From positions 1 through 40,599 of IMG/VR virus record IMGVR_UViG_2537562012_000007: DNA of 40,599 bases; one strand, written 5' to 3'. Every line of letters starts with the position of its first letter. The stretch's first letter is position 1. Under the pieces are notes generated by a model that searched no databases, was not told the origin of the DNA, and worked only from the letters and a program-made list of their open reading frames with translations. This DNA is from a virus. Taxonomy: Duplodnaviria > Heunggongvirae > Uroviricota > Caudoviricetes. Positions 7,734 to 13,182 of the stretch are shown in pieces. The position numbers and the translations under genes are program-made.

Positions 7734-7804
7734 CTCGCAATATTCATACCGGATCACTTCCGGCAATTTGTGAGTAAAAAGATTCGGTATCAAAAGAGGT
7801 GAGT

Positions 7805-8875
7805 ATGGCTAACGCCTGGCTCAGATTATGGCATGACATGCCAAATGACCCTAAGTGGCGAACAATTGCCAGGGTGTCAGGGCAGCCAATTGCAACAGTG
7901 ATGGCAGTGTATATCCACCTCCTGGTGAGCGCGTCACGAAATGTCACGCGAGGTCACATTGATGTCACGACAGAAGATTTGGCAAGTGCGCTCGACGTGA
8001 CAGAAGAGGTAATTGATTCAATTTTGCAGACGATGCAGGGGCGGGTACTTGATGGTGATTTAATCACTGGATGGGAAAAACGCCAGGTGCTGAAAGAGGA
8101 CAACGGCAATATTTCGCAAACCGCAAAATCTCCGGCAGAGCGCAAGAGGGCGCAGCGAGAGAGGGAAAGAAAGCGGGAACAAAATGGCGATTGTCACGGC
8201 GAGTCACGAAATGTCACGCACATGTCACGACGAGTCACGACAGATAAAGATACAGATAAAGATACAGATCAAGAAGATCAAAACACTATGGTCCATGGCG
8301 TAAAAAACGCCACGAACCAGGCAGGGGATGTTCAGACCGTCACTCCTGGCCAGCCCGCAGGCACGACACCGGAAGCCGATTCAGCGTATGCGCTGAAAGC
8401 CGATTCGGGCGCTGTGCAGCAGGTGATGACCGCAAGGCAGGAGCAATCACACCAACTTCAGCAGCCTGAAGCCGATTCCGCCATTCAGCGGGAAGCCGAT
8501 CGGGTAGTCCCGGAAAACACCGGGCAGCCTGTGGGACGAGTGGATTATCCTGATGTGTTCGAACAGGTCTGGCGGGAATACCCGTTGCGTGCCGGGGCAA
8601 ACCCGAAGAAATCCGCTTTCAGTGCCTGGAAGGCCAGATTACGCGAGGGGGTGCCACCAGAGGCCATGCTGGATGGCGTGAGGCGTTACGCAAGATACTT
8701 GGCGGCTACCGGGAAAACGGGAACGGAATTTGTTCAGCGAGCGACGACGTTTTTTGGACCGGACCGGAATTTTGAGAACCCCTGGTTGCTCCCGGTAAGC
8801 GGCACGAACAACCAGCGTTGTGTGAATCATATTTCTGAACCGGATAACGAAATTCCGCCGGGCTTCAGGGGGTAA
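7805..8875 (+). CDS. Replication initiator, O-like / replisome-organiser N-terminal domain
   Basis: N-terminus MANAWLRLWHDMPNDPKWRTIARV...; the gene body contains iteron-like GTCACG repeats (see repeat features); AGAGG RBS 5 nt upstream of the ATG at 7805. Confidence 0.7.
   Translation: MANAWLRLWHDMPNDPKWRTIARVSGQPIATVMAVYIHLLVSASRNVTRGHIDVTTEDLASALDVTEEVIDSILQTMQGRVLDGDLITGWEKRQVLKEDNGNISQTAKSPAERKRAQRERERKREQNGDCHGESRNVTHMSRRVTTDKDTDKDTDQEDQNTMVHGVKNATNQAGDVQTVTPGQPAGTTPEADSAYALKADSGAVQQVMTARQEQSHQLQQPEADSAIQREADRVVPENTGQPVGRVDYPDVFEQVWREYPLRAGANPKKSAFSAWKARLREGVPPEAMLDGVRRYARYLAATGKTGTEFVQRATTFFGPDRNFENPWLLPVSGTNNQRCVNHISEPDNEIPPGFRG
7931..8006. repeat. Iteron cluster 1 inside the replication gene (GTCACGA / TGTCACG units)
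   Basis: GCGTCACGAAATGTCACGCGAGGTCACATTGATGTCACGACAGAAG ... CGACGTGACAGAAG. Confidence 0.6.
8191..8267. repeat. Iteron cluster 2 inside the replication gene, plus a GATAAAGATACA direct repeat
   Basis: TTGTCACGGCGAGTCACGAAATGTCACGCACATGTCACGACGAGTCACGACAGATAAAGATACAGATAAAGATACAGATC; the 15-mer TCACGAAATGTCACG is shared with cluster 1. Confidence 0.6.
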
Positions 8876-8915
8876 GTGTTAATTTCTGGTCATGAGGTAA
8901 TTTTCAGGAGGGCTT

Positions 8916-9371
8916 GTGGCAAAAGTTTTTACACAAGAAGAGCGGGAAAAAATTAAAGGGCAGGTTGTTGAACTCGTACGCCAGAGTGGGCGCGAGACGT
9001 TACGACAACTGGAAACTAAAACTGGGGCAACAAGATATCTGATGAGCGTTCTGGCCAGAGAGCTGGTTGCCAGTGGCGATGTATACAACTCTGGTTACGG
9101 GTTATTCCCGTCTGAACAGGCGCGTAAGGACTGGCAAAATGCCCGTAAAAAGCTCTCAAGGGCAAAGCTGAAGAAACCATCTGCGGTTGATCCGGACCTT
9201 ATCTGGTCATTACCTGACGGAGAAATACGTCGCTACGACAGGCGTCAGAACATAATCTGTCGCGAGTGCCGGAAGAGTGAAGCTATGCAGCGTGTACTGG
9301 CATTTTACCAGAATGGTTTTCGAGAGACATTCGGTGAACAGGTTGTGCATGAGGGAAATCATGGCGCTTAG
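8916..9371 (+). CDS. Hypothetical protein (151 aa), replication module
   Basis: GTG start with AGGAGG 5 nt upstream; no recognisable domain. Confidence 0.5.
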   Translation: MAKVFTQEEREKIKGQVVELVRQSGRETLRQLETKTGATRYLMSVLARELVASGDVYNSGYGLFPSEQARKDWQNARKKLSRAKLKKPSAVDPDLIWSLPDGEIRRYDRRQNIICRECRKSEAMQRVLAFYQNGFRETFGEQVVHEGNHGA

Positions 9372-9799
9372 GCAATTGTGTAGACGCGTTGACGGTCGAA
9401 AGCATAGGAGGGTTGATTGATCGTTCTAGTTATGCTGTCAGAGCGAAAGCGCAGGAACTGGGTATCAATAGGATGTTAAGAGGGGGGGGGGGTATAACCA
9501 ATCAAAAAAACATCCGCAAAGCGATATTGAGCTAGTGCGGAAGCTTCATCAGTGTGGAGTTCCCCGCCGTGATATCGCTGTAAAACGCGAAATGTCCTTG
9601 GGCATGATTAATCAGTACGTTTATTTCGACAGGAGAGCGCATGAAGTTTGACATCTAGACAACTGGGGGAGCGCTGAAAACGTTCTTAATTGATGTTGGA
9701 TTCGCTTTACATACTGAACTGTTTGGCTGAAAGACACGGTAGTATCACCAATCAAGGTGCTTTTGATAAACGCTTGTGTGTTTGTTTTTTAATCCATTG

Positions 9800-9828
9800 T
9801 TGACAACTAGGTTAGTTTTCCATATCAT
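9800..9828 (+). promoter_or_regulatory. Sigma70-like promoter upstream of the ParA-like gene
   Basis: TTGACA (9800-9805), 17 bp spacer, TATCAT (9823-9828). Confidence 0.5.
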
Positions 9829-9858
9829 CAATAAAAGTGTAAAACTAATGGTGGCGAT

Positions 9859-10905
9859 ATGACTAGTGAATCAAATGTTAATGCTCTGATAGAGCGTCAA
9901 TTCGAAGTTGCTGACGGTAATGTAAGAAGTCTTAATTTGCCGAAATATGATAAATATACAGTATGTAATTTACGGGGAGGCATTGGTAAGACATCTTTAA
10001 CTTTTAATCTGTCATATTTGGCGGATAACGCATTAATCGTGGATACGTGCCCGCAAGGAAATTTATCATATTTTTTTGACAATAATTATGCATCTTCGTC
10101 TAGCACAACTGCAAATGACCTCTTAATGCCTTATTTTGTTCCAGGGCTTGGATTTGCAACGCGTGCTGCAAAGCTAGTATCATCAACTAATGCTTGGTTT
10201 GCGGGCAAGAATAACTATTTTATTCAATCTGATAGTCAACTTTATCTTCTACCTACGCAAATGGCGAATGCTCTGGCTCAAGCCAGAACAATTTCTGGGG
10301 CTACTCAGCAGGTTGTTATTGATACAATTCTTTTTTCTCTGAAGAAAGAAATAGCCAGAGAAATGGTTGAAACTGGTACTACAAAAGCGTTAATTGATAC
10401 ATCACCTTTTTTCTCTGGAGCGACGCATTTATCTTGGCATGCAACAGATGCTTTAATAGTTCCAGTGAGGACAGATCAGCAATCGATTAATTCATTAAGA
10501 TTACTTATTGATACTCTGACTAAACCAACATCAGAATTTAGAAAGATAATGCCGTCTGATGGCCATACACCAAAAATTCAGATGGTGGTTATTACCCATT
10601 GCGGATGGTCAACAGTGGCAGGAGCAAGGAATAAACCAAATCAACAGACAAAAATGTACATCGAAGCTGTAAGAGAGGTAATTCGACAAAATATTAGTAA
10701 TTTTACAACAGATGATCCTAATAATCACATTGTGATTCTTGATGATTTTCTGGGTAGTGGCAGAATGTCAAGTGCTAAGTCTAAACCATTAGAGTTGTTA
10801 AATCCAGGAGATGCAATGACTGTGAATAGAGTTAGGACATCCGTGAATTTATCTGTTAACAAAATAAAAAATGAATTAAAGTTCATTCACAACTCCATAT
10901 GGTAA
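9859..10905 (+). CDS. ParA/MinD-family P-loop ATPase with C-terminal extension
   Basis: Deviant Walker A CNLRGGIGKTSLT followed by DTCPQGN, as in ParA/Soj; 348 aa; markedly AT-rich codon usage by eye relative to the phage backbone. Confidence 0.75.
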   Translation: MTSESNVNALIERQFEVADGNVRSLNLPKYDKYTVCNLRGGIGKTSLTFNLSYLADNALIVDTCPQGNLSYFFDNNYASSSSTTANDLLMPYFVPGLGFATRAAKLVSSTNAWFAGKNNYFIQSDSQLYLLPTQMANALAQARTISGATQQVVIDTILFSLKKEIAREMVETGTTKALIDTSPFFSGATHLSWHATDALIVPVRTDQQSINSLRLLIDTLTKPTSEFRKIMPSDGHTPKIQMVVITHCGWSTVAGARNKPNQQTKMYIEAVREVIRQNISNFTTDDPNNHIVILDDFLGSGRMSSAKSKPLELLNPGDAMTVNRVRTSVNLSVNKIKNELKFIHNSIW

Positions 10906-11250
10906 ATGACATTTTATTTGAATAATCTGGATTGATAATCATTGTTACATTAATTGTTATTAATTCTAAATAATCCTATCGTTCTTCAGGATGAGATAAT
11001 TTATATTTATTTGTGTTGTGATTTTTTGAATTTATTTAGGTTTATGAACTGTTTTAGATGAAATGAATCATGAATACGAAATTGTTGCGGTACTGATAAC
11101 GAGGAAAGACCTCTGCGAGGTACGAATCCGAACCGGCCAGACGGAGGTCGCTGTCTTCACAGCTTACGAACCTGAGGAGTAAGAGACCAGGCGAGGGAGA
11201 AATCCCTCGCCACCTCTGATGTGTCAGGCATCCTCAACGCACCCGCACTT

Positions 11251-11273
11251 AACCCGCTTCGGCGGGGTTTTTA
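11251..11273 (+). terminator. Rho-independent terminator
   Basis: ACCCGC-TTCG-GCGGG stem-loop followed by a T-run. Confidence 0.6.
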
Positions 11274-11355
11274 TTGGTTGACAAAATTATGAATATGCAC
11301 CAATATCTTGGTTGACAAAAGTCGTTTTTTGCACGGATTAGGCGGAGAAGTGTCT

Positions 11356-11949
11356 ATGCAGAACCATCCATTCCCTTGGGAGTTCTTTCCTGAGTTAACA
11401 GAGGAGCGTTTAACCATTATAGCTGAGGAGTTGCTCAGGATACAGGATATTACTCATGAGTTATTGTCATCGCCCTATGATGATAATTACACTCGTGGTG
11501 GTTGTACATTTGGGCGTCAGCGGCAGGCGTTGCTACAAATGTGCGTACGAAAGACATATGACTGGTTAAGACTACTTAATCCTGGCATGGATCTTACGTT
11601 TTCAATTGGGAATGTCCCTATTCGTTTCTTTACTGATGACGCAGATAACCCCAAGAAACGCGGTTTTTTCAAAAGAAATGATGCTGATCGACTCTTCGAG
11701 TCAGAGGAGACTACTCCAACTATGCATCGCTTTGTGGTTGAAAAGCCTGAATTTGAAGGCGAGGGTGGTAGAGTCATTTTTAATGGCTATAACGTGTTTG
11801 GTGAGATCGTGTCAACTTGGACATATGGTGCGGACCGTGTTGTTATGCTGAACTCTGTCGATGATGTACCTCCAGCACCGGTACCTATCGAACTAGAACC
11901 TATCAGTGCGTCTAAGACTGAGAAGGAAAAGAAACAAAATAGCAAATAG
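11356..11949 (+). CDS. Hypothetical acidic protein (197 aa), accessory cassette
   Basis: ATG at 11356 with GGAG RBS; the TTG at 11308 used by the track lies inside a promoter-like repeat; no recognisable domain. Confidence 0.6.
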   Translation: MQNHPFPWEFFPELTEERLTIIAEELLRIQDITHELLSSPYDDNYTRGGCTFGRQRQALLQMCVRKTYDWLRLLNPGMDLTFSIGNVPIRFFTDDADNPKKRGFFKRNDADRLFESEETTPTMHRFVVEKPEFEGEGGRVIFNGYNVFGEIVSTWTYGADRVVMLNSVDDVPPAPVPIELEPISASKTEKEKKQNSK

Positions 11950-11959
11950 TGGGTGAAAT

Positions 11960-13081
11960 GTGTTTAACGGTACTAATTTAAGACTTGCTCGTCTGTATCA
12001 CGAGCTATCTCTGGAGCAGGTTGCTGAGAAGGTTGAAAAAACACGCCAGTATGTACAGCGACTGGAGTCTGGTTCAGCTACTCCATCCCCAGAGCTTATA
12101 AATAAATTAGCCGAGGTTTTGCGCGTGAAGCCCGCCTTTTTCGAAGGGCAGGAACATTCTCCTGTTAATGAAGAGATTGTACATTTTCGTAAACGCGCCT
12201 CGACAAGGATGTCAACGAAGCTATCAACACTCGCTAAGGCTGAGTTTTATCGTCGTTTTATTGATGTATTTGAAGATAACCTTAATTTGTCACCTGTTCG
12301 ATTTCCTGAATTTCGTGTCCATACACAAGAAGATATCGAGCGAGCGGCAGAAAAATGTCGTATTGAGTGGGGCTTAGGCTTTGGCCCAATTGAAAATATG
12401 ACTCGCCTTGCCGAGAAACTTGGGGCGTTTGTTACTTCATTTGACTCCGTTTCGGATGAAGTAGATGCACTGTCTGTTCCTCTACGAAGGCCTTTTATTG
12501 TTCGAAATACAGCTAAAAATTCACCTTGTAGGCAACGCTTTGATATTGCTCATGAGGTTGCCCATTTGATTCTTCATGAAGGAATTTCTACTGGGGATAG
12601 ATTAACTGAATCCCAGGCAAACCGTTTTGCCTCTGCTCTGTTGCTTCCCAGAACGTCGATGGCGAAATATTTTCCAAGACCTGTGGGGGGGAGGATAAAT
12701 TGGCAGGGACTAAGCCAATTTAAGTTGACATGGAAAGTAAGTAAGGCTGCCATTGTTTACAGGGCTCATCAATTAGGACTTTTGACTGATGAGCAGTACA
12801 GAACTGCATTTATGGGGTTGAAACGGAAAGGGGAAGCTATTGATGAAAAAGAAGATTATCTAATCCCTCATGAGCGTCCTGAGTTATTCCGTCGGGCTTT
12901 ATCGTTTTTATTTGAAGAGTTAGGATACGACCCACAGCGTATAGCTGATGAAATGGATATAGAAGTGGACATTTTTTATGAGTTAGTAGGAGATGATCTT
13001 CCTGCGGTTCATGAACTGCCAGGAAGTGGTGATGTTGTTTCACTACAATCTTACCGAACTCTTAGAGGCAAAATTCACTAG
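11960..13081 (+). CDS. XRE-family HTH fused to ImmA/IrrE-type zinc metallopeptidase
   Basis: N-terminal HTH (LRLARLYHELSLEQVAEKVEKTRQYVQRLESG), central HEVAHLILHE (HExxH) motif typical of ImmA/IrrE (COG2856-like); GTG start. Confidence 0.8.
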   Translation: MFNGTNLRLARLYHELSLEQVAEKVEKTRQYVQRLESGSATPSPELINKLAEVLRVKPAFFEGQEHSPVNEEIVHFRKRASTRMSTKLSTLAKAEFYRRFIDVFEDNLNLSPVRFPEFRVHTQEDIERAAEKCRIEWGLGFGPIENMTRLAEKLGAFVTSFDSVSDEVDALSVPLRRPFIVRNTAKNSPCRQRFDIAHEVAHLILHEGISTGDRLTESQANRFASALLLPRTSMAKYFPRPVGGRINWQGLSQFKLTWKVSKAAIVYRAHQLGLLTDEQYRTAFMGLKRKGEAIDEKEDYLIPHERPELFRRALSFLFEELGYDPQRIADEMDIEVDIFYELVGDDLPAVHELPGSGDVVSLQSYRTLRGKIH

Positions 13082-13085
13082 GCAT

Positions 13086-13108
13086 AACCCGCTTCGGCGG
13101 GTTTTTTG
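13086..13108 (+). terminator. Rho-independent terminator, near-identical to the one at 11251
   Basis: ACCCGC-TTCG-GCGGGT followed by TTTTTT; shares the core TAACCCGCTTCGGCGGG with 11249-11267. Confidence 0.65.
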
Positions 13109-13182
13109 TTTTACGTATTCTGGTTTACAATCTACAGGCCAGCCTGAACAACTGGCACCTGCTGCGCCAGCAGAGAAAACCG

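Follow-up and report, generated by a model that had tools for sequence, protein, structure and literature searches.

A frameshifted DNA-binding protein gene with a length-variable G-run at an accessory cassette junction of a lambdoid prophage

The segment at positions 9372–9858 of IMG/VR record IMGVR_UViG_2537562012_000007, whose entire 40,599-nucleotide stretch is referred to here as the window, is a frameshifted accessory phage gene at a cassette junction, which is an ordinary kind of feature. It has one mildly notable property, a G-run that is found as at least seven alleles and that decides whether the gene is seen. The segment has three parts: a damaged HTH gene (9361–9651), the stub of the next gene (9641–9673), and the leader and promoter of a ParA-like gene (9674–9858). 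We give a probability of roughly 0.7 to this explanation, in which the G-run is a mutational hotspot, the length changes are mostly neutral knock-outs, and no helicase loader gene ever lay here. Homology, reading frames, junctions, and allele diversity on identical flanks are direct observations. The HTH gene and its fragments, the G-run, the stub, the leader, and the DUF977, ParA-like, and initiator genes all lie on the plus strand.

Homology to a family of small phage DNA-binding protein genes

According to the ORF list, the longest ORFs between 9372 and 9858 encode 48, 38, and 37 aa (9389–9535, 9535–9651, and 9690–9803, respectively), in agreement with a preliminary description of the segment, which had reported no ORF of note there. 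The HTH-like fragments that it mentioned are genuine, as GLIDRSSYAVRAKAQELGI sits in the 48-aa ORF and intact homologs match the segment by tblastn. Three of these homologs, namely D6 orf90 and two genes from O157-type prophages, match it in two frames each, at 9359/9368–9484 and at 9487–9645/9648, with joint E values of 1e-23 to 2e-22, and the joint match spans residues 2/3 to 93/105 of the intact proteins. By this homology, 9361–9651 is a full-length homolog of a phage gene of about 93 aa annotated as a DNA-binding protein. The DNA identity to D6 orf90 and to a P1-like plasmid is 74–76% over 9390–9651 (blastn), and the amino acid identity to intact homologs, once the frame is restored, is 63–72%. 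The intact homologs include WP_050571723.1 from the P1-like plasmid and WP_072140318.1 from an O157 prophage, in addition to D6 orf90.

A protein search with the frame-restored protein returned 24 homologs with E values down to 1e-46, including an 87-aa protein (P0001) that is 98% identical. In an alignment of 25 sequences, the restored protein retains all 19 invariant columns, while the conserved N-terminal segment is missing. With a more sensitive search, homologs were found in 698 complete E. coli genomes out of 5,426, chiefly within prophages of the chromosome; in the records listed they are annotated as "DNA-binding protein" or "hypothetical protein". When the restored protein was searched by tblastn against phage records, D6 alone was found. 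The family matches the middle of phrog_323 and has a weak HTH of the Sigma70_r4_2/HTH_23 type. Pfam returned only Sigma70_r4_2 for the protein, below threshold, and searches of the family against NCBIfam and PADLOC gave no match. The predicted model (pLDDT 67.5) has two helical halves joined by a low-pLDDT linker at residues 32–41, where the Gly run falls. Its best structural matches by Foldseek against the PDB are HTH domains only, none of them significant (E ≥ 0.1), and a PDB sequence search with the protein yielded nothing significant, so that no related solved structure was found by either search.

The natural stop codon of the gene overlaps the ATG of the next gene (ATGA), an arrangement shared with the intact homologs. 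In the O157-type prophages inspected (n = 2), the HTH gene stands between DUF1627 and DUF4406 downstream of the initiator and P genes; the full order is repressor, Cro/YdaS, YdaT, initiator, replication protein P, DUF1627, and the 93-aa gene, followed by DUF4406, DUF4752, Ea22-like genes, hokD, DUF968, RusA, and Q. Since the 93-aa gene precedes the DUF4406-to-Q stretch in these prophages, it is the first gene of the variable, nin-like region. The HTH gene normally opens the variable accessory region that comes after the replication and Ren-like genes, both in Rac/lambda-like prophages and in P1/D6-like phage-plasmids.

Judged by sequence, the gene in the segment appears to be a damaged member of the uncharacterized D6 orf90-like HTH family. 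It shares with the D6 orf90-like proteins homology over the whole gene, the stop/ATG overlap, and the genome position. It differs from them in that the original ATG and the N-terminal ILRQCAG are out of frame, and in that the linker GD(Y/F)H has become a poly-Gly stretch encoded by the G homopolymer, at which the frame is broken.

Reading frame lesions in the window

Alignment with the intact genes of ATCC 43894, E400634, D6, and a P1-like plasmid locates the ancestral start codon at ATG 9361, preceded by GAGGGAAATC, and behind it an out-of-frame N-terminal remnant of 19 codons (9361–9420). In this DNA alignment, one extra base within 9374–9377 throws the first 19 codons out of frame and leads to a stop at 9418–9420; the MALRQ of the window aligns with the MILRQ of the intact genes, and the frame is then lost. 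ETEC1701, a diverged relative, has the same additional base. The ancestral ribosome-binding site and ATG are conserved and overlap the end of the DUF977 ORF, the last 11 bases of which overlap the ancestral start codon of the HTH gene. The present frame can begin only at TTG 9389, where the intact homologs shown have an ATG, and no Shine-Dalgarno sequence stands before this TTG. The original start was lost in this lineage through a single extra base near 9375, and what is left of the gene is readable only from TTG 9389.

The second lesion is at the G-run. The 5′ fragment runs from the TTG to a premature TAG (9389–9535, 48 aa), as seen in the ORF list, by tblastn, and by recoding, and the corresponding residues 3–41 of the intact ATCC 43894 and E400634 homologs match 9368–9484 (tblastn). 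The 3′ part (9487–9651), detected by both tblastn and blastn, is in another frame and ends at the natural stop TGA 9649–9651; residues 41–93 of the intact homologs match 9487–9645 at 62–67% identity (tblastn). The frame stops in the window are thus at 9418–9420, caused by the extra base, and at 9533–9535, caused by the shift at the G tract. In the DNA alignment, the ancestral TTA CGG GGT GAT TAT CAC stands where the G-run now is. The run, which the preliminary description had counted correctly as exactly 11 Gs at 9482–9492, derives from the ancestral CGG GGT GAT, codes for a Gly-rich linker, and is the site of the frameshift.

Programmed recoding was considered at two places and set aside at both. 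A −1 frameshift from DUF977 into the HTH gene could have used the heptamer G GGA AAT at 9353–9359, from which the −1 frame is open (from 9353). It found no support, as the downstream RNA fold is unremarkable (z −1.35), the heptamer is the old ribosome-binding region and is conserved in intact homologs, and the protein search showed no DUF977–HTH fusion among the homologs. The second candidate, +1 shifting at the tandem AGG AGG (9406–9411), is not conserved in ETEC1701.

Alleles of the G-run

The next longest run of G or C in the window is 7, and the number of runs of at least 11 G or C expected from the base composition is about 0.025. Across related blocks we found seven tract alleles: G6, G7, G8, and G9 followed by TT, and G9, G11, and G12 followed by T. 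The blocks that bear them differ by 0–1 SNP per ~500 bp. Of 32 loci compared from the end of DUF977 to the start of ParA, 31 were identical or had a single SNP outside the tract. The exception, locus L032, has one further 1-nt indel, A7 to A6 at a nearby run. This was considered as a compensating change for its G9TT tract and was rejected, since a TAA follows at once and the ORF is not restored.

Seven alleles on near-identical flanks mean that the tract mutates far faster than its surroundings, which bears out the earlier suggestion that it is a slipped-strand hotspot or a sequencing artifact. Slipped-strand mispairing is known at long runs, with a rate excess of ~1,000-fold for a poly-A tract (PMC2831843), and we infer that the length changes arise in this way. 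The linker-coding region would have been turned into a G-run that slips during replication, copies of the block carrying 6 to 12 Gs.

Recoding showed that only G5, G8, or G11 followed by TT, or G9 or G12 followed by T, are in frame. The open alleles seen are G8TT, G9T, and G12T, with an ORF of 86–87 aa, and the out-of-frame alleles are G6TT, G7TT, G9TT, and G11T, the last being that of the window. With its 11 Gs, the window stops at 48 codons; one more G would give the open G12 allele. The segment had been called gene-free and degenerate, which is accurate for 11 Gs but not for 12, with which an 87-aa ORF is open; a single base decides. What separates G9T from G8TT is a synonymous change, GGT to GGG, by which the run becomes longer, and the window belongs to this G(n)T line.

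Open alleles are a minority, about 5–8% of blocks, a figure that has to be read with the knowledge that they were mostly found by protein look-up, which can see open alleles only, and that the allele counts include clonal ETEC lineages, a confounding factor. Three samples are free of a bias toward open alleles. Of the 14 complete E. coli genomes with the block, 12 have G7TT (read directly or inferred from match length), one has G9TT, and one has G6TT, so that none is open. Five contigs from IMG/VR and two from metagenomes (one of these a duplicate of an IMG/VR contig) contain no open allele either (0/6; G6, G7, or G9). Among the ParA-anchored places, two of ten carry open alleles. The 86-aa open-allele protein P0025, which is NCBI-named in E. 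coli and Salmonella Cerro and clusters with P0001, is found in 44 index blocks, against 827 for the linked ParA protein; the proteins of this cluster correspond to G12T, G8TT, and G9T. An exact look-up of the short OFF-state peptides in the protein collection found none. In one group of human ETEC genomes, G7TT appears to have reached fixation.

Several alleles were encountered repeatedly, in many assemblies of independent origin: G7TT was read in nine loci and inferred by match length in nine further RefSeq genomes, G8TT occurs in eight loci, and G9T in three. The polymorphism as a whole is therefore real. Part of the spread in tract length may be technical, given that L032 differs at the nearby A run as well and that the length of RmrT also varies among assemblies (180, 186, and 197 aa in L037, L040, and L034, respectively). 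A near-isogenic pair of genomes, CP122775 (G8) and CP122784 (G7), differs at the tract, which hints at switching within a clone; neighboring gene lengths differ as well in this pair, and sequencing error is possible.

Long G runs are error-prone on most sequencing platforms, and the length recorded at this particular locus could be an artifact, the true tract being G12 (or a mixture of G11 and G12) and the 87-aa ORF being open here. A Logan contig (L020, run SRR11281040) corresponds to window positions 9249–11126 over 1,879 bp of otherwise identical sequence, with zero mismatches and one gap, namely G12 instead of G11. In addition, G11T was seen in no other assembly examined, and the protein collection contains no entry for the exact 48-aa product. 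That absence says little, however, as short ORFs are rarely called as genes. Relatives often carry out-of-frame lengths, and do so reproducibly (G7TT, for example, in many genomes of independent origin), so that an OFF allele here would not be unusual. We regard a miscounted tract at this locus as possible but doubtful.

Coding capacity of the in-frame alleles

The in-frame alleles are open for 86 codons up to the natural stop. The dN/dS ratio between an open allele and intact homologs is 0.22–0.30, compared with 0.11–0.25 among the intact genes. In the predicted model, extra glycines in the linker between the two helical halves should be harmless. The in-frame alleles may make an N-terminally shortened protein, a possibility to which we give about even odds.

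The gene could also have died long ago, at the extra base near its start, in which case the in-frame lengths would be irrelevant and no allele would make a protein. Both in the window lineage and in ETEC1701, neither the ATG nor the conserved N-terminal segment is in frame, TTG 9389 lacks a Shine-Dalgarno sequence, the next gene is destroyed, and most alleles are out of frame, all of which would fit. However, a gene dead at 14% divergence should have gathered stop codons, whereas the in-frame alleles keep 86 codons open with the dN/dS values given above. A comparison of the window with ETEC1701 points in the same direction, with ~5 synonymous against 3–4 nonsynonymous changes and an in-frame 3-nt deletion, although the 30 comparable codons are a very small sample. 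On balance, an early death of the gene seems rather improbable, though not strikingly so.

The opposite proposal would make the run a contingency (phase-variation) locus, a reversible ON/OFF switch of an HTH regulator, encoded immediately before the ParA-like gene and the Rosmer defense genes, through which populations of lysogens hedge between two states. A run of at least 8 Gs in a coding sequence, with ON and OFF alleles on identical haplotypes, is what such a locus would present. The tract lies in a predicted flexible linker, where in-frame changes only add or remove Gly, the run of the G9T/G11T/G12T line has grown through the synonymous change from GGT to GGG, and the dN/dS values suggest an ORF under purifying selection until recently. 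Moreover, the tight DUF977–HTH–ParA block travels through at least four different replication-module backgrounds. This linkage of the HTH gene to ParA is explained, however, by a single insertion beside a gene that elsewhere is followed by unrelated genes. The ON alleles, at ~5–8% of blocks, fall below the one-third expected even without selection, the OFF allele G7TT appears fixed across the human ETEC group, and the original start and conserved N-terminus are lost as well. We consider a switch unlikely. As open alleles are the minority, a neutral hotspot fits better than a selected switch, and the length changes would mostly be neutral, recurrent knock-outs of a gene that is dispensable to the resident prophage.

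Boundaries with the neighboring genes

Upstream of the HTH gene lies a DUF977/Ren-like gene of 151 aa (8916–9371), identified by Pfam DUF977 (E 8e-29) and by phrog_142, "Ren-like exclusion protein" (E 4e-47). The match to phrog_142 fits the lambda order O, P, ren, nin. Homology to the DUF977 genes of phages Evi, Tritos, and 640R1 ends at 9311, and the homology of the HTH gene region begins at 9336.

Downstream, a 5′ stub of the next gene (9641–9673; ATG AAG TTT GAC ATC TAG) can be recognized when the window is aligned with D6 orf91 and with the gene that follows the HTH gene on the plasmid. The stub contains a stop codon and has lost 8 bp, and its homology runs out near 9673. Next comes the AT-rich leader of the imported ParA-like gene (9674–9858), recognized from a promoter scan, GC content, and an inverted repeat. 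The GC content falls from ~0.48 to 0.34, the promoter-like site consists of TTGACA (9800) and TATCAT (9828) separated by 17 nt (11 of 12 matches), and the small inverted repeat is at 9812–9822/9838–9848. Apart from block-bearing prophages, the leader was unmatched in the complete E. coli genomes and phage records. An Rfam scan of 8800–11500 gave no ncRNA match at E values up to 1, and a search upstream of ParA for parS-like or iterated repeats gave only short two-copy matches of chance size.

The cassette gene itself (9859–10905) encodes an orphan ParA-like ATPase (Pfam AAA_31; phrog_164) with ~70% amino acid identity to the ParA of small Aeromonas plasmids, its closest plasmid relatives. An identical ParA-like protein is present in the 827 index blocks mentioned above. 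Homology to ordinary prophages resumes at 11081–11088, inside a hok gene whose 5′ end is missing, and the ParA cassette therefore replaced the genes between the HTH gene and hok, not a loader gene. The arrival of this horizontally acquired gene would have destroyed the gene next to the HTH gene and the 5′ end of hok. It had been suggested that a cassette overwrote phage DNA and left a remnant. This part is upheld, but the remnant is the stub at 9641–9673 of the gene after the HTH gene and not a loader.

The setting is the usual mosaic, moron- and defense-rich ren-nin interval of lambdoid phages. Like the ren-nin region of lambda, it has an initiator, a Ren-like gene, small variable genes, hok, DUF968 (YdfU)/RusA, and Q, and it contains cassettes with their own promoters and junctions inside genes. 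It differs in carrying the orphan ParA from an Aeromonas-plasmid-like source as well as a Rosmer system. This Rosmer defense system lies in the same ren-nin interval. The equivalent genes of Tritos (HokD, and ImmA/IrrE with its neighbor) are expressed in the lysogen (PMC9928086).

Replication module and the absence of a helicase loader

The segment had been placed where a helicase loader is expected, and it had been suggested that the cassette may have replaced the loader gene and left a remnant of it. A gene of the P or DnaC type is indeed absent from the window, as had been stated, and a cassette did overwrite phage DNA here. With the P protein of ATCC 43894 (itself phrog_109, E 5e-55) as the tblastn query, the best lambda-P match in the window had an E value of 0.74, with none in 9372–9858, and with the YdaV-like protein of UMNF18 the best match of the DnaC/IstB AAA+ type had an E value of 5.0. 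PHROG scans of the other early-region ORFs returned repressor, RusA, Q, and proteins of unknown function, and no loader.

The segment, however, belongs to a different gene family over its whole length: the translated comparison with replication proteins showed no similarity to P or DnaC and matched the small HTH gene instead. Nor is its position that of a loader. In seven loci (L002, L004, L007, L008, L009, L021, and L026), the loader gene is found between those for the initiator and DUF1627, upstream of DUF977, and no loader-bearing relative has it after DUF977. These loaders are of the P type in ATCC 43894 and E400634 and of the IstB/DnaC-like type (248 aa) in UMNF18, ETEC4090, ETEC1701, L021, and L026. 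Initiator and DUF977 are 40 bp apart in the window, and likewise in Tritos, Evi, and 640R1, all of which share the initiator. In comparison with the lambda P and DnaC-like (YdaV, IstB-type AAA+) loaders, the segment has in common with them only the early right operon neighborhood of a lambdoid prophage; it has no sequence similarity to them, and its position, size, and fold class are wrong for a loader. A loader remnant is rejected on homology and synteny, and we consider it extremely improbable.

For the replication initiator (7799–8875, 358 aa), phrog_3729, "replication initiation protein", gives an end-to-end match (E 7e-257), while the C-terminal half of the protein also matches phrog_1701, "DnaD-like helicase loader" (E 1e-61). 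Over its first 195 aa it has 75% identity to the DnaT-like initiator that goes with P. As a whole it shows 98–99.7% amino acid identity to its counterparts in phages vB_EcoS-640R1, Evi, and Tritos, in which the initiator, a 40-bp gap, and DUF977 follow each other without a loader. Tritos was plaque-purified and propagated on MG1655 hsdR− (PMC9928086), and Evi is described as a coliphage isolated from infant feces (PMC10910852). From the PHROG annotation and the synteny in these phages, which have literature support, the replication module can be classified as a type without a loader of its own. It probably uses host loading factors through the initiator.

Discussion

The G-run invites comparison with the homopolymeric-tract contingency genes of Neisseria, Haemophilus, and Bordetella and with the poly-A tract of inlA in Listeria (PMC2831843). 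As in those genes, a long mononucleotide run lies within a coding sequence, and multiple lengths, some in frame and some not, occur on identical haplotypes. The differences are that the ON state is not enriched, that the gene has already suffered damage to its 5′ end, and that it resides in an E. coli prophage. Two features of contingency loci, the long in-coding run and length polymorphism with both in-frame and out-of-frame alleles, are found here; what defines a contingency gene beyond these is reversible switching within a clone and a phenotype tied to the ON state.

Known phase variation in E. coli prophages works by inversion or Dam methylation and not by long G runs. If the run were nevertheless a switch, turning an N-terminally remodeled HTH regulator on and off, we would have an unusual instance of phase variation driven by a homopolymer in an E. 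coli prophage, beside defense genes, and the lysogens would be mixed for traits such as expression of the ParA cassette, induction, or exclusion of other phages.

The result also bears on annotation. One base more or less in a long homopolymer settles whether a pipeline calls a gene here; some genomes list an 86-aa protein for this block, and others show it as empty. The G-run is also a handy hypervariable marker in a widely spread prophage block, as judged from the 827 index blocks with the ParA protein.

The main value of the analysis lies in correcting the reading of this segment as the trace of a lost helicase loader. The prophage is not crippled by such a loss; since its loader-less module is common to the plaque-forming phage Tritos, calling the prophage defective on that ground would be wrong.

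The replication module and the end of the DUF977 gene

The replication initiator (7799-8875) is a mosaic. Its residues 1-195 share 75% identity with a DnaT-like initiator that is paired with the helicase loader P; the C-terminal half is of a different type, phrog_1701 ('DnaD-like helicase loader'), and the final 20 residues match, at 95% identity, the tail of an HTH_36-type initiator that is paired with a DnaC-like loader. Despite lacking a loader, the replication module is also found in the plaque-forming phage Tritos.

The heptamer G GGA AAT is found at the end of the Ren-like DUF977 gene (8916-9371), at positions 9353-9359. From 9353 the -1 frame continues without a stop into the adjoining small DNA-binding (HTH) gene (9361-9651), so that, formally, -1 frameshifting could fuse DUF977 to the HTH product. 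RNA folding revealed no structure that would stimulate a shift at 9353-9359 (z -1.35), and the heptamer corresponds to the former ribosome-binding region of the HTH gene. Its likeness to a frameshift signal is probably a coincidence.

Sequences flanking the G-run

An A7 run (9504-9510) lies 12 bases 3' of the G-run (9482-9492) that breaks the HTH frame. One relative (CP098955.1; locus L032, about 1150) has A6 instead, alongside the G-run allele G9TT (nine G followed by two T); either the A7 run is a second place where slippage occurs, or the assembly of this relative contains homopolymer errors. The G-run is also adjoined by one copy (9492-9505) of a 14-nt direct repeat (GTATAACCAATCAA / GTATCACCAATCAA), the other copy of which (9742-9755) is located within the leader of the ParA-like gene (9674-9858) and is similar to the ancestral HTH-gene sequence TATCACCAGTCA. 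A repeat of this length is roughly what chance alone would give.

The Rosmer insertion and the ParA cassette

An RmrT/RmrA Rosmer anti-phage system was detected at 11308-13081 (with 11251-11277 and 13087-13112; PADLOC E 7e-93 and 4e-201). It is a clean 1.8-kb insertion with a promoter-like sequence of its own, and the same terminator-like hairpin (AACCCGCTTCGGCGGG followed by a T-run) is present on each side of it, while Rosmer-less prophages carry a single copy through which the sequence is uninterrupted. In the porcine ETEC relatives L004, L022, L037 and L040, RmrA is broken into two pieces of 245 and 118 aa, and RmrT is not of constant length (180, 186 or 197 aa), which indicates either Rosmer decay in this lineage or assembly errors.

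At its right end the ParA cassette cuts into hok, of which a remnant lacking the N-terminus is left (11063-11182); the homology of the window to prophages with an intact hokD begins at window positions 11081-11088. The cassette encodes an orphan ParA-like ATPase of 348 aa (9859-10905), with ~70% amino acid identity to ParA of small Aeromonas plasmids, in AT-rich DNA (GC 0.24-0.42). No ParB-like partner is encoded in its immediate neighbourhood. An 11-nt inverted repeat (TTAGTTTTCCA / TGTAAAACTAA; 9812-9822 / 9838-9848) surrounds the -10 element of the ParA promoter and is a candidate operator. The identical ParA-like protein occurs in 827 index blocks, always accompanied by DUF977 and the HTH gene, in at least four different replication-module backgrounds.
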